DNA from: a virus
Taxonomy: Duplodnaviria; Caudoviricetes
IMG/VR virus record: IMGVR_UViG_3300023293_000046
Location: 1-35,243 of that record
Strand: one strand, 5' to 3'
DNA: 35,243 nucleotides
Each line of letters opens with the position of its first letter. Within the stretch, counting starts at the first letter, position 1. The position numbers and the translations under genes are program-made. The notes under the pieces were generated by a model. The model had not been told where the DNA came from, ran no database searches, and saw nothing but the letters and a program-made list of their open reading frames with translations. Shown piece after piece: positions 8,314-35,243 of this stretch.

Positions 8314-10479
8314 ATGGCAGAACAAGTAATTTTAGATATTAGCATTCCTCTAACCGACGTACAAAAAGCGGAGCAGGAAATAGGCAAGATGCGCGGGGAA
8401 GTTGACAAGCTTAAGACCGCTAATAAGGAACTCGAAAAAACTTCAGTAGCTTATACAAAGAACGCGATAGAAATAAAGAGATTAAGCGGAGAGATTCGCA
8501 CTAATGAAAGGGTTTTAGTCTCCAACACCAAGGCACAACTAGCTAACGAGGGAAGCGTGGATCAACTACGCGCGCAGCTATCGAAGACGTCTATACAGTG
8601 GGCAAAACTATCCAAGGATGAGCGCGAAAACAGCGAGGTTGGCAAGCAACTAACTGCGCAAAAGAAAAGCGAAACCGACCAACTCAAAGCCCTAGAAAAG
8701 CAAACAGGAGACAACCGAAGAAATGTAGGTAACTACTCCGAGGGAATGAAAGAGGCGTTAAAGTCTAGCGGACTATTCGCAAGAGAGCAGCAGGCACTTG
8801 CTACGGCTCAAAGAATTGTAGCAACCACAACGGGCGGGGTAAACAAAGGGCTTAAACTGTTTAGGCTTGCCTTAATTGCAACTGGTATTGGTGCTTTTGT
8901 GGCATTAATTGGAACATTAGTATCGGCATTCCTAAGCACTCAGCGCGGGGCGGATGCGCTAAACTCAGTAATCAAGCCATTGCAGTTTGCTTTCCAGAGA
9001 ATTGTGGGAGTGTTCCAAAAAGTAGCGACAGCCTTAGCTGATTTAGATTTTCGCAAGGCATGGAACGAGTTAAAGTTATTTGGCAGCGAAGTCAAGGCGG
9101 GAGTTAAAGATGGCCAAGATTTCGCAAAAAGTCAAATTGCAATTAAAGATGCTCAACTAGCACTTGCTACCGTCCAAGGTGAATTAAACCGCAAGATTCA
9201 AGAGCAGAAAAGCATTGTTCAGGACGTTCTTAAAACCGACCAAGAGCGGACTAAGGCAGGAAAAGAAGCTATTGATGCGCTAAATCAAAGAACAGATTTA
9301 GAGGCCAATATTCTTAAGGAGCAACTTAAACAGGCCCAGTTAGCAGCTAATCAGAATGACACAGATCGAGATGCTAAGATAGAACTAGCTCAGTTAACTA
9401 GCGATCTTGCACAGTTAGAGGCTGACCGATTAAGTGCAAGCCTAGAGATACAGAATCAATTAAACGGAATCGAAAAAAGTTCAATCGAAAAAAGCAAAAC
9501 CTTAGCCCTTGAATTATCGAAAGCACAGATTGAGCAAGCACAAATTACTAGCGATGAGATAATAAGAATCTCGGAAGAGGAATCAGATAAGCGGGTATTA
9601 ATCGAAATGCAAAGGAGCAGGCGTGTTAACGATCAAGCACTATTAGCTCTCAAGCAAAGTCTAATTAACGAGGAAATAACGCGGGATGAATACGATTTGA
9701 AGCTTTTAGAACGCGAGCAAAACTTATTAAACTCACTTAGAGCAGCAAGAGTAATCGCGGGACTAGATACTACCGAGTTAGACAATCAATTAGCAGATAT
9801 GCAAATTGCTAACATTGAGCGCGTAAAATCTGCAAATCAGCAAGCATCAGCAGCTACGGTGGCAATCAAAGGGGATGCGTTAGATAGCGAATTAGGAATA
9901 GCAAAACAAGGGGTAAACATCGCTAAGCAAGCAGCGGGAGACAATGCCGAAGCGCAGAAACTCGCAGGATTGGCGGCTATCGGAATTAATCTTGCCGAGA
10001 CGATAACCAAGGCATCAACTTTAGGTCCAGCGGGTATTGCTTTCGCGGTTTTATCTAGTGCAATTGCGGCTGTTCAAACCGCTAAGATCAAGTCCACAAA
10101 TACAAACTTCGCGGACGGTGTGATAGGATTAAACGGACCGGGAACATCCACAAGCGACAGTATCAGCGCGAACTTATCAAGAGGCGAATCAGTAATAACC
10201 GCGAAGGCGACAACGGCTTACGCTCCAGTTCTTGCGCAAATGGAGCAAGCGGTAGGTAATAAGCCGAATTTTCAAATGGGCCACAAGCGGAACTTTGCCA
10301 ACGGGATTATATCAGCGGGAACAAGCCCAGCGATAAGCAGCACAAGAGCAGAGAACGCAAGCCTAAGCCGTGTTAGTGACGAGATAGGCAAGCGGAAAAT
10401 CTATGTATCAATTGAGGAGTTCGAGGATAAGCAGCGGGACTTCACCGAGGCAAAGCAGTACGCTAATATTGTGGAGTGA
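8314..10479 (+). CDS. Tape measure protein
   Basis: 721 aa of Ala/Gln/Lys-rich coiled coil, RNVGNY, hydrophobic LIATGIGAFVALIG segment, C-terminal FADG...GPGTSTSDSI...LSRGESV. Confidence 0.85.
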   Translation: MAEQVILDISIPLTDVQKAEQEIGKMRGEVDKLKTANKELEKTSVAYTKNAIEIKRLSGEIRTNERVLVSNTKAQLANEGSVDQLRAQLSKTSIQWAKLSKDERENSEVGKQLTAQKKSETDQLKALEKQTGDNRRNVGNYSEGMKEALKSSGLFAREQQALATAQRIVATTTGGVNKGLKLFRLALIATGIGAFVALIGTLVSAFLSTQRGADALNSVIKPLQFAFQRIVGVFQKVATALADLDFRKAWNELKLFGSEVKAGVKDGQDFAKSQIAIKDAQLALATVQGELNRKIQEQKSIVQDVLKTDQERTKAGKEAIDALNQRTDLEANILKEQLKQAQLAANQNDTDRDAKIELAQLTSDLAQLEADRLSASLEIQNQLNGIEKSSIEKSKTLALELSKAQIEQAQITSDEIIRISEEESDKRVLIEMQRSRRVNDQALLALKQSLINEEITRDEYDLKLLEREQNLLNSLRAARVIAGLDTTELDNQLADMQIANIERVKSANQQASAATVAIKGDALDSELGIAKQGVNIAKQAAGDNAEAQKLAGLAAIGINLAETITKASTLGPAGIAFAVLSSAIAAVQTAKIKSTNTNFADGVIGLNGPGTSTSDSISANLSRGESVITAKATTAYAPVLAQMEQAVGNKPNFQMGHKRNFANGIISAGTSPAISSTRAENASLSRVSDEIGKRKIYVSIEEFEDKQRDFTEAKQYANIVE

Positions 10480-20357: not shown

Positions 20358-21137
20358 ATGAGTACTACTGAATTAACACGAATTGAGAATTTACAAAAAG
20401 TATCCAATCAAATTAATGAAGCTTATTCGCCTGAGCAAATTGGAGTAATACAAAAGAGCGTTGCTAAAGATACCACCTTTGCGGAGTTAGCTTACTTCTT
20501 AAACGTATGTAAGACAATGGAGCTAAACCCTTTTAATAAAGAGGTGTGGTGTTATAAGGATAATAGAGGTAATCTTTTAATCTTTTCGGGCCGTGATGGT
20601 TTTCTGTCCAAGGCACAAAAGAACCCGCTATTTAATGGGATGCGTTCCGCTGCTGTTTGTGCGAATGATGATTTTAAAATGAACATTGCAACGGGTGAGA
20701 TTAGCCACTTTCCAAACTTCAAAGAAGATAGAGGCGCTATTATCGGAGCGTATGCAATAGCGTTCAGAAAGGGAGGAGAGGCTACTATAGAGTGGGCAGA
20801 GTTCGCGCGATACAATAAAGGTTATAACGCTTGGAAGAGTCACCCAGAGGAGATGATTAAGAAAGTAGCTGAGTCACATTCATTAAAGAAAGCATTTGGC
20901 ATTTCAGGTGTGCAGTCAGAATATGAGTATGACGTAAAAAACAACATAGCTGCTCCTATTGGTGCGACTGCTAAGGTTGATAAATTACAAGTCTTACAAG
21001 ACCTACTTGATGAGAAAGCAATGGATATAACTCAAGAGGATTATGCAGCTATTAAATTAGTAATAGACGGCAAAGAGGAATCAAGCTATGACAAGGCAAT
21101 AAAAGTATTAACCGAATTACAAACTAATAATGATTAG
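20358..21137 (+). CDS. bet: RecT/Bet-family single-strand annealing protein
   Basis: LNPFNKEVW, GRDGF, IIGAYA, WKSHPEEMIKKVAESHSLKKAF. Confidence 0.9.
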   Translation: MSTTELTRIENLQKVSNQINEAYSPEQIGVIQKSVAKDTTFAELAYFLNVCKTMELNPFNKEVWCYKDNRGNLLIFSGRDGFLSKAQKNPLFNGMRSAAVCANDDFKMNIATGEISHFPNFKEDRGAIIGAYAIAFRKGGEATIEWAEFARYNKGYNAWKSHPEEMIKKVAESHSLKKAFGISGVQSEYEYDVKNNIAAPIGATAKVDKLQVLQDLLDEKAMDITQEDYAAIKLVIDGKEESSYDKAIKVLTELQTNND

Positions 21138-21984
21138 CAGAGTAGCCAACTTTAGCAGTTCAAGCGCGCACCGATTAATAGGCGCGGGAAAGCGACCAAT
21201 GACAGCGGACGAACTAGCGGCACGACCTAAGAAGGGGGTCGGTAGTGCGGTTAAGCAAATCGAAGACAGCACAATGTTAGGAGCAACTACCATTAGCTAC
21301 ATAAAGGAGAAGGTACGCGAGGAGAAGCTAACACGATCACTACAGGCCGACAGCAACGCCCGCCCTTTAATTTGGGGTAAGGTTATGGAGCGGTATGTTT
21401 TCGAGCGGAAACTAGATACAAGTTATCGAGATGGCAACCAACAAGGCAGAGTTGAGCATACAACTGTAGACCGTTGGAACGGCATACCGGATACTTTAAG
21501 AGTAACGGTAGACAATAACATAGTCGGGGATATTAAATGCCCATTCAGCTTAACTTCTTATTGCGATACAATAGAAGCAATTGAGGCGGGGCTAGATGTT
21601 TACAAACTAGAGAAGAGTGAAAACTACTGGCAGTTAATTAGTAACGCTTGTTTACTTGAGGGTAAGTTAGAGATTCCATTCAATCAAGGCGAGAGTATTA
21701 TTTACGTTCCTTATGCTAGTGAGCTGCCAGATATTAGAGACTGGATTAGTCAAGACTTTACACCTGAGAACGAAGGATTAACACCTTTCCAATGCGAGTG
21801 GATTTATAATCAAATAGTGGGTCTGATTACTAGCGGCCAAGAGCCTAGCTTTCCTTACCTACCTGATGCATCAAGTTATAAAGATTTAACATCTTGGACC
21901 TTTGACATCCCGCAATCAGACAAAGACCTACTAACCGCGCGGGTAAAAATGGCGGTTCAAGAACTTAACAAACAATTAAAGTAA
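21130..21984 (+). CDS. YqaJ/lambda-exonuclease-like protein
   Basis: FSSS, WGKVME, GIPD, DIKCP, YWQL; adjacent to the recombinase. Confidence 0.8.
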   Translation: MISRVANFSSSSAHRLIGAGKRPMTADELAARPKKGVGSAVKQIEDSTMLGATTISYIKEKVREEKLTRSLQADSNARPLIWGKVMERYVFERKLDTSYRDGNQQGRVEHTTVDRWNGIPDTLRVTVDNNIVGDIKCPFSLTSYCDTIEAIEAGLDVYKLEKSENYWQLISNACLLEGKLEIPFNQGESIIYVPYASELPDIRDWISQDFTPENEGLTPFQCEWIYNQIVGLITSGQEPSFPYLPDASSYKDLTSWTFDIPQSDKDLLTARVKMAVQELNKQLK

Positions 21985-23923: not shown

Positions 23924-26107
23924 ATGAATGAATACCAACAATTTCTAGAAACTAAAAAAAAGACTTTTCTAGAAAGCGGTTTTGAAGTAGACCAAAGTAC
24001 TTTAAATTCTAATCTATTTGACTTTCAAAATCACATAGTATCTATTGCTTTAAGAAAAGGCAGATTTGCAGTCTTCGCTGATTGTGGTCTAGGTAAGACA
24101 CTAATGCAATTAGCATGGGCCGAGGCTGTTTATAATGAAACAAGTATCAAGGTATTAGTATTAGCCCCGTTAGCGGTAGTAGAACAAACCAAAGAAGAGG
24201 CTATTAAGTTTGGGGTAAATACAGATGCATTTGATATTACTAATTACGATCAGTTAAAAAATGTAGACTGTAGTATTTATAGCGGAGTTGTATTAGATGA
24301 AAGCTCAATATTAAAAGGTCGGGATGGTAAATTATCTAGGCTTATTATTGAAAGCTTTAAATTAACTCCTTACAAATTAGCTTGTACTGCTACACCTTCG
24401 CCTAATGACCATATGGAACTAGGGCAGCATAGCGAGTTTCTAGGCGCGATGACTTATTTAGAAATGCTGGCTATGTACTTCGTTCATGACGGAGGCGAAA
24501 CATCTAAATGGAGATTAAGAAAACACGCTAAAGACCCATTCTGGACTTATGTATGCACTTGGTCTATTGCCGTTGCTGAGCCTTCAACTTTAGGATTTGA
24601 TTCTAGCGGTTATAATTTACCTGAGATCGAATACATTGAGCATATTATTCCAGTAGAAAACAATACAGAGTCTTTATTTGGTGACGTAGCGGTAAGTGCT
24701 ACCGAACTACATAGAGATTTAAAGAGGTCTTTTGATCTTCGTATTAATAAAACTAAAGAAATTATTAGCGGCATCAATGGGCAGTGCATAGTGTGGACGT
24801 TAAAAAATGACGAGGCTACTATTTTATGCAAGGAATTAGACGATAGTGTTAACGTGCAAGGATCGGATAAGCCAGAGTTTAAAGCGAAGAACTTAAATGG
24901 ATTTGCAAAAAAAGAATTTAGTAATCTGATTACTAAAACAAGTATTGCCAGTTTTGGAATGAACTATCAGCAATGCAGTAATATGATATTTACTTCTTAC
25001 GACTTTAAGTTTGAGGCGTTTTATCAAGCAGTTAGAAGGTGTTATAGATTTGGTCAGAAGAACAAAGTAACCGTTCATCTATTAGTACCAGAGAGTCAAG
25101 TTAACGTAAGGGCTACAATTTTAGAAAAGCAAAAAAGACACAAAGAAATGATAGATGAAATGTCTAAATACTCAAGCGAAGCTGATTATAAAAGCAGTAA
25201 GTCAAAAGTTACAATAAGCCATAAGGAAGTAAAGACAGATGAATACCACGTTATTAATGGGGACTGCGTTAAAGAGTCTAAAAAAATAGACGACAATGCT
25301 GCTGATCTAATAGTATTTTCGCCTCCTTTTGCAGAGCTTTATGTTTACTCTGATAAAGAAGAAGACATGGGCAACGTTGCTAACTATAAGCAATTTGAGC
25401 ATCATTTTAAATTTCTGATTCCAGAACTTAAACGAGTATTAAAACCAGGTAGAATATGTGCTATTCATTGCATGGACTTACCAATACAAAAAGGCAAAGA
25501 AGGATATATTGGACTTAGGGACTTTAGCGGTATGATTACTAAATGGTTTCAAGATCAAGGTTTTATTTATCATTCTAGGGTTACAATATGGAAAAACCCA
25601 GTAACTGAAATGCAAAGAACTAAAGCATTAGGATTACTCCATAAGACTATTAAGAAAGATAGCGCAATGACTAGGGTGGGTATTCCTGATTATATTCTTT
25701 ACTTTAGAAATGAAGGAGATAATTTAATACCAATTACCCATCAAGATAAAGACGATAGCAAAGCGGATTATCTACCTGTGGACTTGTGGCAAAAATACGC
25801 TTCACCTGTATGGATGGATATTGATTATGGTAGAACTCTACAATACAGATCGGGTAGAGATGGAAATGACGAGAAGCATATTTGCCCTTTACAACTAGAC
25901 ACCATCGAGAGAATTATCCATTTGTATTCAAATGAAGGAGAAACCATATTTAGCCCATTTGGCGGTATAGGATCAGAGGGGTTTAAAGCAATACAGATGA
26001 ATAGAAAATCTATTAGCATTGAGCTTAAAGAGTCATACTTTGCTTTAAACGCAAAAAACCATAGAGACATTGTAAACGAAAAGAAAAGTACCCTAAAATT
26101 ATTTTAA
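23924..26107 (+). CDS. SNF2-like helicase fused to a beta-class N4-C/N6-A DNA methyltransferase
   Basis: Helicase: CGLGKT, LDESS, TATP, QAVRRCYRFGQ. Methyltransferase: SPPF before FSPFGGIGS. Confidence 0.9.
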   Translation: MNEYQQFLETKKKTFLESGFEVDQSTLNSNLFDFQNHIVSIALRKGRFAVFADCGLGKTLMQLAWAEAVYNETSIKVLVLAPLAVVEQTKEEAIKFGVNTDAFDITNYDQLKNVDCSIYSGVVLDESSILKGRDGKLSRLIIESFKLTPYKLACTATPSPNDHMELGQHSEFLGAMTYLEMLAMYFVHDGGETSKWRLRKHAKDPFWTYVCTWSIAVAEPSTLGFDSSGYNLPEIEYIEHIIPVENNTESLFGDVAVSATELHRDLKRSFDLRINKTKEIISGINGQCIVWTLKNDEATILCKELDDSVNVQGSDKPEFKAKNLNGFAKKEFSNLITKTSIASFGMNYQQCSNMIFTSYDFKFEAFYQAVRRCYRFGQKNKVTVHLLVPESQVNVRATILEKQKRHKEMIDEMSKYSSEADYKSSKSKVTISHKEVKTDEYHVINGDCVKESKKIDDNAADLIVFSPPFAELYVYSDKEEDMGNVANYKQFEHHFKFLIPELKRVLKPGRICAIHCMDLPIQKGKEGYIGLRDFSGMITKWFQDQGFIYHSRVTIWKNPVTEMQRTKALGLLHKTIKKDSAMTRVGIPDYILYFRNEGDNLIPITHQDKDDSKADYLPVDLWQKYASPVWMDIDYGRTLQYRSGRDGNDEKHICPLQLDTIERIIHLYSNEGETIFSPFGGIGSEGFKAIQMNRKSISIELKESYFALNAKNHRDIVNEKKSTLKLF

Positions 26108-26358
26108 TGAGCAGATTACACGATATCTTAACCATCCTAGCAAACCCCGACTTAACAAAGTTGCAGCGCCTATTATTAGCCTACCTAAACGCGCAGCAAG
26201 AGGACGAGATTATTACCAACTACACAATCATAGGCGAGGACATTGTAGTAACAGAGCAGACAGCAGAGCGCACGATCCGGGAGTTAGTACGGGCTGGCTA
26301 TATGCAGAAAAAAACCCTCTCCAAAGTCGGAGTATTATTAAGTAATTTTAGATCGTAA
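26107..26358 (+). CDS. Winged-HTH protein, paralog 1
   Basis: NPDLTKLQRLLLAYLN...TAERTIRELVRAGYM. Confidence 0.7.
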   Translation: MSRLHDILTILANPDLTKLQRLLLAYLNAQQEDEIITNYTIIGEDIVVTEQTAERTIRELVRAGYMQKKTLSKVGVLLSNFRS

Positions 26359-26361
26359 ACT

Positions 26362-26634
26362 ATGACACCAGAAAAAGAAAAAACCGACTACCAGACTATT
26401 ATCCAAAACCAAAGCCTCACACCTATACAACGCTTAATACTGATATACCTAAACACTTTAGAGGCTGATTTTATCGAGGGGCGGTTAACGGATATATCGG
26501 AGTTGTTAGGTATCGGACGAACTACCACCGCGCAAGAAACTATTAAACTACATGCGATGGGTTACTTGCAGCGTGAGAATATGGGGCGGCCAGGGGATAG
26601 ATACGGGATTAGGTTAAGCGATTTTAGGCCGTAA
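26362..26634 (+). CDS. Winged-HTH protein, paralog 2
   Basis: NQSLTPIQRLILIYLN...ISELLGIGRTT...LHAMGYL. Confidence 0.75.
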   Translation: MTPEKEKTDYQTIIQNQSLTPIQRLILIYLNTLEADFIEGRLTDISELLGIGRTTTAQETIKLHAMGYLQRENMGRPGDRYGIRLSDFRP

Positions 26635-26688
26635 CGTGATGGCTATGGTTAGTCATTTGAGGTACGAAAATGGAATATAAACCTTGTT
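26633..26688. other. attC-like hairpin site E1
   Basis: AAC gtgat GGCTAT...cattt/aaatg...ATAAAC ctt GTT; the weakest stem of the set. Confidence 0.65.
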
Positions 26689-26729
26689 AGCGTTTGTTTT
26701 TGAGCGTTGGCAGTAAAAATTAGAATATA

Positions 26730-26972
26730 ATGGCAATAGAAATTAAATACTACAGTGTAGTTGAAAACGGAGAAACAAAGCATTTAAAGACTAAAGTGTC
26801 TTCAACCGTAATTGATTTTATGGTACAAGAATATAAAAAGTTCCATTCATCATTAAAAAACAAAAATGATTACTCGTTTCAGAAATATTTAATAATGCAC
26901 GGGATAGAGTGTATTTATGATGGAACTTTTGGTTATGTAAATATAGATCAAGCGTTGGCAAATGAACGCTAA
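26730..26972 (+). CDS. Cassette gene, hypothetical (80 aa)
   Basis: Arms gttagcgtttgttt (26686-26699) and aaatgaacgctaac (26960-26973). Confidence 0.75.
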   Translation: MAIEIKYYSVVENGETKHLKTKVSSTVIDFMVQEYKKFHSSLKNKNDYSFQKYLIMHGIECIYDGTFGYVNIDQALANER

Positions 26973-27022
26973 CGATGGGAATATGGTTAGTGGATTTTTA
27001 GCCATTAAATATATTACGTGTT
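26971..27022. other. attC-like hairpin site E2
   Basis: AAC gatgg gaATATGGTTAGTGG atttttag CCATTAAATATATta cgt GTT. Confidence 0.8.
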
Positions 27023-27060
27023 GTACATAGTGCGGAATTAATAATAAAAACTTAAATAAA

Positions 27061-27369
27061 ATGAAACAAGAAAAAATAGATTACGACAAGATTATGGCTT
27101 TGGGCTTTAGTGTAGAAATTGCTTCTGATAGTTGTTATGAGGCTGAACACGGATATGCTTATTGCATAATTACAAAGAACCTAACAAAGAAGATTTACTT
27201 GGACTGGCAAAAAGATACTAAACTTTGTAAAATGGTAAGAATAGATAGCCCAAAGACAGGTAATGTAAAAGCAGAAACCCAAATAATGAACCTAGAGCAA
27301 ATTAAAACTCTAATAGATTTTTTCTCCAACGAGAAAAGAACTGAACCTAATTATTATGGACTAGCCTAG
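27061..27369 (+). CDS. Cassette gene, hypothetical (102 aa)
   Basis: Arms gttgtacatagtgc (27020-27033) and gcattgtgtacaat (27369-27382). Confidence 0.8.
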   Translation: MKQEKIDYDKIMALGFSVEIASDSCYEAEHGYAYCIITKNLTKKIYLDWQKDTKLCKMVRIDSPKTGNVKAETQIMNLEQIKTLIDFFSNEKRTEPNYYGLA

Positions 27370-27379
27370 CATTGTGTAC

Positions 27380-27466
27380 AATGACTAGGCTATGAATTGA
27401 AGCCATTAATACAAAGTTTAATTCACAACAATAACCTTGACAGGGCTTTTATTTATAGGCTTTGTT
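27380..27466. other. attC-like hairpin site E3 (AAT variant)
   Basis: AAT gacta ggCTATGAATTGAAGCC...GGCTTTTATTTATAGgc ttt GTT. Confidence 0.8.
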
Positions 27467-27482
27467 AGCAACTTTTAAAATT

Positions 27483-27638
27483 ATGGTAAAGAGAATATTA
27501 AACACACTTGGATTTATCGCATACACTATTATTATTTTAACACCCTTATTTTTTCCTTATATGATAATAAGAGGTTGGACTAAAACAGAAGATGAGTTAT
27601 TGAAACCTATGTTTTATTTTATAGACGGAATGGAATAA
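27483..27638 (+). CDS. Cassette gene, small membrane protein (51 aa)
   Basis: [51 protein letters not shown]; arms gttagcaac..aaaatta and taatttt..gttgctaac. Not in the ORF track. Confidence 0.75.
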
Positions 27639-27652
27639 TTTTTATTGTTGCT

Positions 27653-27736
27653 AACGTTTAGTATAAGGTGAGAAGCCACACCTAAATTTGGCTATTTAAA
27701 ACAAACCCTTGTGGGCTTTTCACTTTATACAGTGTT
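27653..27736. other. attC-like hairpin site E4
   Basis: AAC gttta GTATAAGGTGAGAAGCC...GGCTTTTCACTTTATAC agt GTT; 17-bp stem with G:T pairs. Confidence 0.85.
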
Positions 27737-27758
27737 ACCCACTTTTAAAATTACGATT

Positions 27759-27986
27759 ATGGAAGATGTACTAAAATTTGATTACAAAAAAGGTATGCAA
27801 ACTGTTTACCCTGTACATTTTATGGTTAAGAATTGGGCATTTACAGAAGATGAACACGCAGAAGCAACACTTGCACACGCAATGGCAGTTGTAGCAGAAA
27901 AGAACGGAATGAGTGCAGATGATTTATCACACCTTTTCCCTGCACTTCTTAGAACTCTAAAAAGTAAAATTGATTGGGCTAAGTAA
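27759..27986 (+). CDS. Cassette gene, hypothetical (75 aa)
   Basis: ATG 27759 preferred because GTG 27711 is inside the hairpin; arms gttacccac..aaaatta and taatttt..gtgggtaac. Confidence 0.75.
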   Translation: MEDVLKFDYKKGMQTVYPVHFMVKNWAFTEDEHAEATLAHAMAVVAEKNGMSADDLSHLFPALLRTLKSKIDWAK

Positions 27987-28000
27987 TTTTTATTGTGGGT

Positions 28001-28053
28001 AACGATTAGTATATGAAATGTGGAGCAAAGCGGAATTTTTTATATACCGTGTT
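28001..28053. other. attC-like hairpin site E5
   Basis: AAC gatta GTATATGAAA...TTTTATATAC cgt GTT. Confidence 0.8.
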
Positions 28054-28075
28054 ATGCTCTTTTAAATTTAGATAG

Positions 28076-28351
28076 ATGACGAAAATGTATATAGTAAGAT
28101 ATTGCGGTGGTAGTTATGATGATTGGTATGAGGCTAATGTATTTGTAACTGATAAAAAGACAACTGCTACCAAGTATGTAACCAAGTTTAACAAGACTCT
28201 TGAAAAGTGGAAGAAGTACTACAGTCAATTTGAAAGCAAAGAACTAGGTATGACTTGGATAAAAGATGAATATGTGGATCAACATTTTAATAGATGGAAT
28301 ATCCTAAGAAATATAAATAACTGTTATTGGAAGGAAATAGAGTTAAGGTAA
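28076..28351 (+). CDS. Cassette gene, hypothetical (91 aa)
   Basis: Arms gttatgctc (28051-28059) and gagcataac (28354-28362). Confidence 0.8.
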   Translation: MTKMYIVRYCGGSYDDWYEANVFVTDKKTTATKYVTKFNKTLEKWKKYYSQFESKELGMTWIKDEYVDQHFNRWNILRNINNCYWKEIELR

Positions 28352-28359
28352 TTGAGCAT

Positions 28360-28412
28360 AACAACTGGATAAGCGCACCACTACATATATACACCTAGTA
28401 AGTTAGGATATG
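28360..28412. other. attI-like array-terminal site B
   Basis: aacaactggataagcgcacc...taagttaggatatg; ungapped homolog of 494-546. Confidence 0.7.
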
Positions 28413-29811: not shown

Positions 29812-30054
29812 ATGGAAGCAATACAGAACATAACAACAAACCCCGACCTCTCACCTATTGACAAGGTAATACTATGCTACTTAAACAGCTTAGAAGTAAA
29901 GGAACTGGATACAACTTTAAAGGACTTAAGCCAGAAGTTAAGTATCCATAAGCCGACCTTATACCAAAACATCTACCTCCTAGAGGAAGCGGGATATTTA
30001 ATCTTTGAAAAGATTTACGGGGCGGGAATAATTTTAAGCGATTGGGAAACATAA
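29812..30054 (+). CDS. Winged-HTH protein, paralog 3
   Basis: NPDLSPIDKVILCYLN...LSQKLSIHKPTL...LEEAGYL; ATG 29812 preferred. Confidence 0.75.
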   Translation: MEAIQNITTNPDLSPIDKVILCYLNSLEVKELDTTLKDLSQKLSIHKPTLYQNIYLLEEAGYLIFEKIYGAGIILSDWET

Positions 30055-32155: not shown

Positions 32156-32530
32156 ATGGAAATAAGCAGAGAAAACAAGATCAAAGTAATACTTTTAGGA
32201 TTCGCTAATTATGAAGCGGGGCAAGACTACGGATATAGCGTTTACTATAAACACTTGGAAGCGTTAGGGGTAATTGATCTAAGCGCATCGGATCGGTGGG
32301 CATGGTTAGAAAAAGCAGCCAATCAAATGAAAATAATTTACGGGCAGCAAATAGGGTTTCCGTCTAGTGTAATTCACTTTAAGGAAAAGCTAGACGAACT
32401 TAATCAGATTGACTTTAAGAATAGAAAGGGGGATATTAAGGAAGACTTAAAACTTCATACAAAAATGATAATAGTTAAAGATTTCTATGCCGGTAAGAGT
32501 AAAGAGGATATTAAACAAATACTAAAATGA
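32156..32530 (+). CDS. Hypothetical protein
   Basis: 124 aa in the operon. Confidence 0.65.
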   Translation: MEISRENKIKVILLGFANYEAGQDYGYSVYYKHLEALGVIDLSASDRWAWLEKAANQMKIIYGQQIGFPSSVIHFKEKLDELNQIDFKNRKGDIKEDLKLHTKMIIVKDFYAGKSKEDIKQILK

Positions 32531-33597
32531 AAGATCATAAATTTCCATACGAATGGACGATAAAAGAAGCCAACTTTACAAAAGATAAAGGAACGGTCTT
32601 TAGCTGCTTTGCTTGCGGTGGTGGTTCTACAATGGGTTATAAGTTAGCCGGGTTCGATGTTTTAGGGTGTAACGAAATTGATCCTAAGATGATGGAAGCT
32701 TATATTAAAAATCACAAACCAAAGTACAGCTACCTTGATCCAATCCAGACTTTTAAACTTAGAAAAGACTTACCAAAAGAACTTTATAACCTTGATATTT
32801 TAGACGGTTCGCCGCCGTGCAGCAGCTTTAGTACTGCAGGTAATCGGGAAAAAGATTGGGGTAAAGAAAAAAAATTTAGAGAAGGTCAAGCAAATCAAGT
32901 TCTTGATAATCTATTTTTTGACTTTATAGACCTTGCAAAAGAGCTGCAACCAAAAGTTGTAATTGCAGAAAATGTCAAAGGATTATTACTAGGTGATGCA
33001 AGAAAATATGTAAGAAGGATTTATGAAGCTTTTGATAAAGCAGGTTATTTTGTGCAGCATTTTTTATTAGATGCTAGTAAAATGGGAGTGCCGCAACGAA
33101 GGGAAAGAGTTTTTTTTATTTGCTTAAGAAAGGATTTAGCAAAAGACTTTTTATATCAAAAAGATATGTTCACAACATTACCAAAAATAGATTTATTTTT
33201 TAATGAAAAAACTATACTATTTAAAGAGTACGAAGATGACCTGGGTGCGGAATTAAACAAAGAAACACTAACATATCATAGGTGGTTACAAAGAATACCA
33301 ACTGATACATCTTTTGGAGAAATCACTTTAAGAGTAAATAAAAAGAAAAGTGATTTTAACACTAAAATAGTACACTCAAATAGAGTTTTTCCTACTGTTG
33401 TATCAAAAGGATGTGAGGTAAAATACAAAAAAGCTATTAAAATATCAAAATTAGAATATTGTAAAACAGGAACATACCCAATTGATTATAATTTTAACAA
33501 TAATAACCCAAGCTATTTAATAGGAATGTCAGTACCTCCAGTTATGACCGCCCAGCTATCTTCCAGAATATATGACCAATGGCTTTCTAAACTATGA
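32527..33597 (+). CDS. dcm: C5-cytosine DNA methyltransferase
   Basis: FACGGG, GSPPCSSFS, ENV, PQRRERVF, GMSVPP. Confidence 0.95.
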   Translation: MKDHKFPYEWTIKEANFTKDKGTVFSCFACGGGSTMGYKLAGFDVLGCNEIDPKMMEAYIKNHKPKYSYLDPIQTFKLRKDLPKELYNLDILDGSPPCSSFSTAGNREKDWGKEKKFREGQANQVLDNLFFDFIDLAKELQPKVVIAENVKGLLLGDARKYVRRIYEAFDKAGYFVQHFLLDASKMGVPQRRERVFFICLRKDLAKDFLYQKDMFTTLPKIDLFFNEKTILFKEYEDDLGAELNKETLTYHRWLQRIPTDTSFGEITLRVNKKKSDFNTKIVHSNRVFPTVVSKGCEVKYKKAIKISKLEYCKTGTYPIDYNFNNNNPSYLIGMSVPPVMTAQLSSRIYDQWLSKL

Positions 33598-34395: not shown

Positions 34396-34902
34396 ATGAC
34401 CACACAGCAACTACAAGACCGGCACGAGAAAGGGGAGCGCATACTAGATATGATTAAGAGCGTTGAAAGGCAAATGGAAGATAGAAAATCTCACATAAAG
34501 TACCTAGACCATAATAATGTAGGTAGCATATCTCATAGATTAAGGGTAACAAAAGATATAGATCAAGCCCCTAAGACAATAGCCCGACTAAGAAACTACT
34601 ACTTCAACACTATGGAGATAGTACCAACCGAAAGCATTCAAGATATAGCCAAGGAGGTAGCAAGGAAAACGGAAATTTCCCCAATAACGGACGGCAAGAA
34701 ATACCAGATCGAAACATTTGAGAGCCAAGACTACCGCCTAGAGTTTGAATTTACCCCTCATTATTCACAGGGAGAGTTTGAGGGCGTCTCCGATCTTCAC
34801 ATATACGAGCTATTCCATGACCGCAGGACGTACACAATGGAGGAGCTTGACGGGCTTAAGATGTTACTGTGGGATACGTTAAACAGGAAGGGAAGAGGGT
34901 GA
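34396..34902 (+). CDS. Hypothetical protein
   Basis: 168 aa; its stop codon forms the left edge of array 2. Confidence 0.7.
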   Translation: MTTQQLQDRHEKGERILDMIKSVERQMEDRKSHIKYLDHNNVGSISHRLRVTKDIDQAPKTIARLRNYYFNTMEIVPTESIQDIAKEVARKTEISPITDGKKYQIETFESQDYRLEFEFTPHYSQGEFEGVSDLHIYELFHDRRTYTMEELDGLKMLLWDTLNRKGRG

Positions 34903-34944
34903 CGTTTAGTATAAGAGCCGTTTTAATGTGTGTTATACATTGTT
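34901..34944. other. attC-like hairpin site E6 (GAC variant)
   Basis: GAC gttta GTATAA gagccgttttaatgtgtg TTATAC att GTT; shares the loop cgttttaatg with E7. Confidence 0.75.
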
Positions 34945-34982: not shown

Positions 34983-35216
34983 ATGCAAAATTTTAAAATA
35001 GGTGACAAGGTTTACCATAAAGCAGATGCAGCCCCTTTTGAGGTGGTTGGAATTAGAAAAACAACAGTAGAAATACAAGGTGATTGGAGTGGTGGAACTC
35101 ACAATGTAAATCAAAAGGGGTGGGTAAACCATACTGAGATTAAACCTTATGACAAAACCAAAGTAAAATATTACATAGATGGTAAACCGTTTATGAATGG
35201 AATAGCACTAACGTAG
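34983..35216 (+). CDS. Cassette gene, small SH3-like beta protein (77 aa)
   Basis: FKIGDKVYHK...FEVVGI; arms gttgtaagtagtac (34942-34955) and gtattacttacaac (119-132 via the circular join). Confidence 0.75.
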   Translation: MQNFKIGDKVYHKADAAPFEVVGIRKTTVEIQGDWSGGTHNVNQKGWVNHTEIKPYDKTKVKYYIDGKPFMNGIALT

Positions 35217-35223: not shown

Positions 35224-35243
35224 AAACTTTAATAAATAACAAA

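Follow-up and report, generated by a model that had tools for sequence, protein, structure and literature searches.

A salt-lake phage genome with two arrays of integron-like gene cassettes in reversed layout and no recombinase gene

Organization of the two arrays

The window analysed here is the complete IMG/VR virus record IMGVR_UViG_3300023293_000046 (Caudoviricetes; positions 1 to 35,243, one strand), which carries two arrays of short open reading frames (ORFs), each preceded by an imperfect hairpin resembling the attC recombination sites of integron gene cassettes. Array 1 consists of five ORFs of 80, 102, 51, 75 and 91 residues between hairpin sites; array 2 contains two further hairpins and spans the junction of the genome, a closed circle of 35,097 bp that represents the whole phage contig (35098-35223 duplicates 1-126). 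The same circle is closed by a separate contig of 34,299 bp in one sequencing run. The 24 listed runs are all labelled as salt-lake metagenomes. The elements of both arrays are as follows.

26633-26688, + strand: attC-like site 1, overlapping by two bases the stop codon of the core helix-turn-helix (HTH) gene that precedes it (26362-26634)
26635-26972, + strand: cassette 1, a hairpin followed by an 80-residue ORF (26730-26972)
26971-27022, + strand: attC-like site 2, which moves together with its downstream gene in L431
26973-27381, + strand: cassette 2, with a 102-residue ORF (27061-27369) that has a 96% homolog in L431
27380-27466, + strand: attC-like site 3, beginning with AAT, as does a related hairpin in L010
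27382-27654, + strand: cassette 3, with a 51-residue ORF (27483-27638)
27653-27736, + strand: attC-like site 4 (fold z-score -2.7)
27655-28002, + strand: cassette 4, with a 75-residue ORF (27759-27986)
28001-28053, + strand: attC-like site 5, 92-100% identical over 70-75 nt to seven other viral loci
28003-28361, + strand: cassette 5, with a 91-residue ORF (28076-28351), presumably the newest
28360-28378, + strand: putative attI-like entry site of array 1 (AAC, a 4-nt spacer and GGATAAG; right arm absent)
34901-34944, + strand: site 1 of array 2, whose initial GAC is formed by the TGA stop codon of the preceding core gene together with a C
34983-35216, + strand: ORF of 77 residues in array 2, spanning the circle junction
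130-174, + strand: site 2 of array 2 (fold z-score -4.1)
214-483, + strand: ORF of 89 residues in array 2, with a weak match to PHROG 419 (family of no known function)
494-512, + strand: putative attI-like entry site of array 2, ranked 2 of 136 under the host profile (see below)

None of the five ORFs of array 1 matches a PHROG family or a Pfam family at E<0.001, and no cargo function was obtained from PHROG and Pfam or, for the two of the five ORFs tried, from Atlas. A short direct repeat, GCGTTGGCA, flanks the ORF of cassette 1 (26701-26712 and 26952-26961) and recurs at the ends of related cassettes.

Geometry, folding and end pairing of the sites

The original prediction described five hairpin-headed ORFs and two array 2 sites with a shared spacing, and this pattern is found at all seven places, always on the + strand, with site lengths of 56, 52, 87, 84, 53, 45 and 44 bp. 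The sole additional match, a loose one, lies on the - strand at 10016, in the region of the tape-measure gene. In 1000 dinucleotide shuffles of the region the mean number of matches is 0.025 (maximum 2), and in 100 shuffles of the whole window it is 0.15 (maximum 1); the pattern was derived from the window sites themselves, and independent control comes from scanning other DNA, as given below. All seven sites have a 5-nt spacer on the 5' side and a 3-nt spacer on the 3' side, while their mean column identity is just 48%.

Taken singly, the hairpins are weak, with a clear gain over shuffled sequences in two of seven (z-scores given above). The + strand folds better than the - strand for every site, and in all seven cases the fold of the predicted circle junction is more favourable than that of the integrated site, by 3.8-7.4 kcal/mol. 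The 12 nt beyond GTT and AAC are complementary in a cassette-specific manner: the two ends of one cassette score 9-10, in contrast to 1-7 for the 42 other pairs. The unbroken match is 9 nt long in cassettes 3-5 and reaches up to 14 nt in cassettes 1 and 2 and in those of array 2 (6 and 7), with G•T pairs counted. The gene-specific complementarity of the original prediction is thus borne out, whereas the length assigned to it (9-20 nt) was generous. For 102 viral cassettes the own ends score on average 6.19 of 10, compared with 3.80 for foreign ends and 3.84 for flanks of the same hairpin.

In a set of 93 viral and 122 genomic sites, selected by the pattern only, the free stem positions 2, 3, 6, 8 and 9 covary at z-scores of 8-12. 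The strand carrying AACG is rich in G•T pairs, which outnumber A•C pairs by 130:13 in phages and 137:57 in genomes. The stem register is continuous over ten pairs, with no extrahelical base in pairs 1-10. The sites therefore show the two pairs of inverted boxes of a classical attC (a covarying L stem and the AAC/GTT cores) with an unpaired spacer between them, and the units are single-gene cassettes whose ends would pair in a circle, as in integrons.

In the classical aadA7 site the spacers are 6 and 5 nt long and an extrahelical G is present (PMC9892861, Table S3); as far as the conserved TAA the 5' arm of the present sites is as long as that of aadA7, but the 3' arm is two bases shorter, lacking the extrahelical G and one more base. 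The non-classical geometry noticed in the original prediction is confirmed by this comparison. The extrahelical G is the strand selector of classical attC sites (PMC2727003).

Polarity of the cassettes and position of the breaks

Each array opens with a full hairpin whose first two bases end the stop codon of a core gene, and closes with AAC followed by a common motif without a hairpin (28360 and 494). This layout fits units running from C through the hairpin, GTT and the gene to AA. In L431 the cassette 2 gene is still preceded by its hairpin, but the units on either side of it are different ones, and the two breaks lie at AAC. The third base of this trinucleotide is T in the window (AAT) and C in L431 and L432, so it is part of the downstream unit. 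In L087 an 89% homolog of cassette 1 stops at the same AAC and a different hairpin follows. Loose ends of contigs are also located at AAC (26974, 27651-27653, 28000 and 28004).

In a pool of 492 viral sites, which includes those of Polaribacter phages Freya and Leef, 15 of the 17 site pairs sharing the 55 nt before AAC continue into a different hairpin (in one of the 15 the difference is merely a 1-nt indel). Pairs with near-identical hairpins number 621, spanning 31 families and hence not independent; the downstream flank alone is kept in 61 of them and the upstream flank alone in 10. Together with the relatives described below, these data support the original proposal of single-gene cassettes exchanged at AA/C.

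Among cassettes with matching ends, the folding strand is sense in 60 of 65 from phages (94 of 102 when all pairs are counted) and antisense in 60 of 67 from genomes (78 of 86 for all pairs), so the strand asymmetry tracks the DNA site and not the transcript. Judged by the sequences, the phage layout is that of a reversed integron, in which the sense strand is the one predicted to fold, the hairpin belongs to the downstream gene and the breaks fall at AA/C; Bacteroidota chromosomes use the same kind of sites with their genes in the normal direction.

The relatives L007, L008 and L009 retain both genes flanking array 1, at 68-79% DNA identity, without any site between them; the HTH gene and its stop codon are preserved at the position of site 1, but the site itself is missing. 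In both L007 and L008 an array of two cassettes lies behind the exonuclease gene, one gene later, and is closed by a similar end motif; array 2 is missing from L007 and L009. The parts of L007 and L009 that were read showed no empty entry site. The end motif of array 1 also closes an array in the unrelated contig L001; a longer version of it matches just L001, one near-identical copy and L007. The cassette 5 ORF and the HTH gene, used as queries, returned only near-identical copies. In the contigs from eight runs neither a cassette-sized backward joint, as expected of a circle, nor a clean deletion of one cassette was found, which is uninformative, as contigs drop rare forms.

Related sites, entry sites and recombinases in other genomes

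A scan with a narrow pattern gave at least 122 viral and at least 123 genomic loci, and about 200 viral stretches are estimated for one narrow pattern. A finder based on pairing, applied to the viral pattern loci, placed 270 sites, among them the seeds themselves, on the strand of the seeds and 8 on the opposite strand. The titles of 72 of the 80 listed genomic loci name taxa that we take to belong to Bacteroidota. Sites are also present in the cultured phages Cellulophaga phi17:1, Maribacter Panino and Cellulophaga Ingeline (L210, L211 and L417), and those of Ingeline directly precede an annotated integrase.

The absence of an integrase, noted in the original prediction, extends to the entire 35,097-bp circle: PHROG and Pfam scans, tblastn queries with 80 related enzymes and a profile search of all six frames detected no recombinase, the best matches being weak (tblastn E of 0.005 over 32 residues, antisense within the exonuclease gene; profile E of 0.17). 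Nor was a recombinase motif seen within 6 kb in the 122 listed viral pattern loci, 42 of which are only ~650 bp long. The linkage of an enzyme to the sites is observed in other genomes and not in the phage of the window. At six distinct genomic loci the gene of a tyrosine recombinase of 306-484 residues ends 38-158 nt before an attI-like site and an array (L235 was assigned by eye). These recombinases score 190-220 bits on TIGR02249, below the cut-off of 265. The best PDB match of the L265 enzyme is VchIntIA; a segment of 65 residues in IntIA is reduced to 22 in the L265 enzyme, and the ~43 missing residues correspond to the position of the I2 insertion. By sequence comparison the linked enzymes are Xer-like and devoid of the I2 insertion of integron integrases, which supports the earlier suggestion of a distinct tyrosine recombinase of Bacteroidota.

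The viral relatives of the recombinase are ~266 residues long (74 of 80 loci have a recognised ORF). Array sites lie upstream of them on the same strand in 189 cases, compared with 12, 1 and 7 elsewhere; the genes of these arrays are reversed in 71 of 72 cases, as in the window, and most of the sites (128 of 189) have a 6-nt 5' spacer. In a tree made by a quick method, with an unresolved base and no IntI row, the phage recombinases form their own branch (20 of 25 phage rows, support 94).

The array ends at 28360 and 494 are attI-like by position and profile and can be regarded as candidate entry sites. Against a profile of 13 host attI-like sites they rank 1 and 2 among the 136 words fitting the selecting pattern, whereas against a profile of 35 sites linked to phage recombinases they rank 16 and 15, which favours a host enzyme. 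Their 4-nt spacer is intermediate between the 5 and 3 nt of the hairpin arms. On the minus strand (28362-28378 and 496-512), the arm next to the entry sites appears to resemble a XerC-binding arm of dif.

Two plasmids carry related arrangements. In an Acinetobacter plasmid (L416, 3217-4722) a gene for a 221-residue recombinase related to the host enzymes is followed by tet(X3), which has an attI-like site on one side and a hairpin of this family on the other. In a Bacteroides ovatus plasmid (L415, 5749-12828) a recombinase gene is followed by at least 11 co-directional genes separated by related hairpins, and several of these genes are annotated as immunity proteins.

Reuse of cassette ends

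The ends of the cassettes reappear around unrelated genes. Four unrelated ORFs (L149, L199, L094 and L196) are framed by the 74-nt front of cassette 5 and by its 3' end, the sequences switching no more than about 5 nt from the start codon on one side and at the stop codon on the other; four other loci have the cassette 5 hairpin without the cassette 5 ends. The ends of cassette 1 enclose unrelated ORFs in phage Panino, L089 and L206, those of cassette 3 in L149 and L120, and those of cassette 4 a different ORF in L097, the last being seen also in contig joints. In a chromosomal cassette (L241, 10001-10800) the first 13 and last 12 bases are those of window cassette 5 (28051-28362), with the gene on the opposite strand.

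In the case of cassette 2 it is the gene that recurs in different contexts. In 16 non-identical loci it is found between sites, in the loop of a hairpin, or free of sites. In L435 (1152-1560), L434, L439 and L442 a gene of this family occupies the loop of a site, the left arm preceding it and the right arm following it in L435, and in L437, L438, L441, L443, L446 and L131 it lies outside any site.

Genes and ends thus have separate histories, and the ends are drawn from a common pool. Accordingly, the cassettes are not simply independently acquired, as was originally proposed. RecT-type exchange within shared untranslated ends is a likely route by which genes and ends would be reshuffled.

Genomic setting

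Family scans of the phage genome identified terminase, portal, tape-measure protein, RecT, SSB, NinG, DnaB and two methylases. The genes of the RecT-like annealing protein and a likely exonuclease (20358-21984, + strand) are candidates for the exchange of ORFs between cassette ends, either as a helper or as a rival route. Probable anti-restriction genes are located outside the arrays, namely a helicase-methylase fusion (23924-26107) and a C5 methylase (32527-33597). There are three small HTH-like genes, two right before array 1 (26107-26634) and one after the exonuclease gene (29812-30054), where the arrays of the relatives sit. The final 20 nt of the window (35224-35243) diverge after the repeat of 1-126, beginning three bases ahead of the AAC at 130; L002 and L006 agree with the version at the start, and the final 20 nt are either a variant or an assembly tail.

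Discussion

We consider it probable, at about 0.65, that array 1 consists of five hairpin-gene units and an attI-like end, moved at AA/C by an integron-like tyrosine recombinase borrowed from the host, a probable member of Bacteroidota. In the proposed mechanism the sense strand would fold as single-stranded DNA, giving the 5-nt and 3-nt spacers and an unbroken L stem free of extrahelical bases, and the recombinase, supplied in trans by the host, would cut after AA. The unit C-hairpin-GTT-gene-AA would leave as a circle, whose junction is predicted to fold better than the integrated site, and re-enter at the double-stranded attI-like site that closes the row on its 3' side and has a 4-nt spacer. 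Insertion at this end would make cassette 5 the newest. Viewed from the minus strand, the array would be an integron with its genes turned round; reversed in this way, the genes would need no cassette promoter, as read-through from the core genes upstream could express them. Ordinary small phage genes placed between reused ends would probably be the source of new cassettes.

Several observations weigh against this interpretation. Array 1 is unchanged in the four near-identical viral contigs that cover it (L003-L006). In respect to the pairs with the same hairpin, 549 of 621 differ on both sides and the 10 mentioned above keep the upstream flank only. Loose ends of contigs occur also at GTT (27467 and 27733) and near start codons (28068 and 26716), and mismatched cassette ends are present in L432 and L433. 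By these sequences there is a second route of exchange beside AA/C, and the expectation that breaks in relatives would fall exactly at AA/C holds in part: gain, loss and breaks at AAC are found, but so are breaks at GTT and at start and stop codons. Within one order, a single query at E<=1e-90 detected the host recombinase in no more than 7 of 201 genomes; it was seen at just 6 distinct of 80 long pattern loci, and the host profile comprises 13 sites chosen by a pattern written after the window sites had been seen.

The same site-specific system could instead be served by a short phage-encoded enzyme, brought by a co-infecting phage or a prophage, or the arrays could have been acquired from such a phage as blocks that are now frozen. 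The ~266-residue viral recombinases with reversed-gene arrays directly upstream, their separate branch in the tree and the unchanged near-identical copies of the phage all speak for this, and still we hold it unlikely: the end sites of the window fit the host profile better than the phage one, and all window sites have a 5-nt spacer instead of the 6 nt prevailing at the phage enzymes.

Somewhat less likely again is that the hairpins are short homology or regulatory modules shuffled by the RecT of the phage, with an ancestral and unused likeness to integrons, in the manner of the PeSL elements of T4-type phages. Those are also stem-loop modules between small accessory genes of variable content, and their recombination gives rise to mini-circles (PMC2839356). 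The RecT and likely exonuclease genes of the window, the chimeric ends and the breakpoints at GTT and at start and stop codons agree with such shuffling. However, PeSL elements are promoter-terminator repeats swapped by homology (PMC2839356), whereas the window sites are diverse, as their low column identity indicates, and carry recombinase-type cores. The strong promoter and terminator stem-loop typical of each PeSL repeat were not found: promoter-like matches in the region are not enriched (7 compared with 11.2 expected) in a sigma-70-type scan, which Bacteroidota promoters may escape, and no terminator-like site is present on the + strand. Homology alone would also not predict gene-specific matching of the far ends, the linkage of the third base at AA/C or the attI-like ends.

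An ordinary cluster of attC sites lacking an integron integrase (CALIN), with classical attC sites served by a classical IntI, appears very improbable, despite the AAC-G and T-GTT cores, the purine-rich folding strand, the crossover at AA/C and the precedent of phage CALINs, 17 of which were reported among 10,705 phage genomes (PMC9892861). Like the CALINs of virulent phages described there, the window has attC-like clusters in an integrase-less phage, with at least two sites and no integrase. The CALIN sites are, however, treated in the available text as classical attC, without mention of reversed genes, entry sites or another enzyme, and each window array has an attI-like end, unlike those clusters (PMC9892861). 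Beside the deviating spacers and missing extrahelical G, the sub-threshold TIGR02249 scores and absent I2 insertion of the linked enzymes stand against classical IntI. Five of six phage sites were recombined by IntI1 in that study, the exception being P12002L_attC1 (PMC9892861), a Polaribacter phage site which has the cores of the window family, a 6/3 spacer and no bulge.

That the hairpins are RNA elements acting in processing, termination or translation control between small early genes is barely conceivable, since the folding strand, which is the transcribed one in phages, is antisense in genomes, the pairing of the ends bridges the gene and requires a circle, and Rfam gave no family at threshold for the sites (one match lay below it).

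The system appears to work in an integron-like fashion, yet departs from integrons in three defining respects: the element has no I2-containing enzyme of its own, the sites have no extrahelical G, and the genes run in the opposite direction. In common with integrons it has the AAC/GTT cores, a single G•T-rich folding strand with the apparent crossover at AA/C on it, ends that pair within each cassette, a candidate entry site without a hairpin on one side of the array and linked enzymes with VchIntIA as the best structural match. The linked enzymes elsewhere are nevertheless free of I2, and the genes lie on the folding strand, while a classical attC is downstream of its gene with an antisense folding strand.

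The system is also related to the rAID-1 platforms of Bacteroidales, in which low-GC genes, all in one direction and separated by integron-like repeats, come after a XerD-like recombinase gene; the recombination mechanism is not stated in the available passages (bioRxiv 10.1101/471110). The co-directional genes of the window arrays are likewise low in GC (0.313 compared with 0.407), but a 5' XerD-like recombinase gene is absent. In the rAID-1-type cluster of Bacteroides ovatus (L415) the hairpins, of the form AAT-G...T-GTT, share the site cores of the window and are antisense to the genes, and the recombinase is 50% identical. The rAID-1 form differs in being on the host side, with immunity cargo, normal gene direction, its own enzyme and a somewhat different stem. 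Like CTXphi and other Xer-borrowing elements (PMC4792948), the window phage would present a folded single-stranded site without extrahelical bases to a host enzyme without I2. In the CTXphi type, however, the whole phage genome integrates at dif (PMC4792948), while here many single genes appear to be exchanged inside the phage genome. No account of reversed phage cassettes, or of an I2-less enzyme acting on such sites, was found in the literature searched, which included few subscription papers.

More tentatively, at somewhat less than even odds, Bacteroidota and their phages may share an integron family free of I2 and of extrahelical bases, intermediate between Xer hijacking and integrons, in which enzyme-less phages mimic the entry site of the host with their genes reversed, and cassettes are formed by placing phage genes into reused ends or hairpin loops, so that their genesis could be traced directly. 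Host cassettes entering a phage would be antisense, and vice versa; with opposite gene orientation, one enzyme could serve both the phage and the host pool while the expressed cargo of each stays separate. According to PMC4792948, cassette genesis lacks a reliable model and the I2 insertion is there for the extrahelical bases; integrons are speculated in the same paper to have originated from viruses. A site family without the extrahelical G and with a linked enzyme without I2, common to phages and hosts, bears on these questions. With one gene family found between sites, in a loop and free of sites, and with the same ends around unrelated genes, the genesis of cassettes becomes open to comparative study. 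On the host side, rAID-like immunity genes and tet(X3) are flanked by sites of this form, which may thus bear on the first capture of resistance genes of Bacteroidota. If the interpretation is true, the arrays would represent a site-specific route for the turnover of accessory genes in phages that is largely missed by scans for attC sites.

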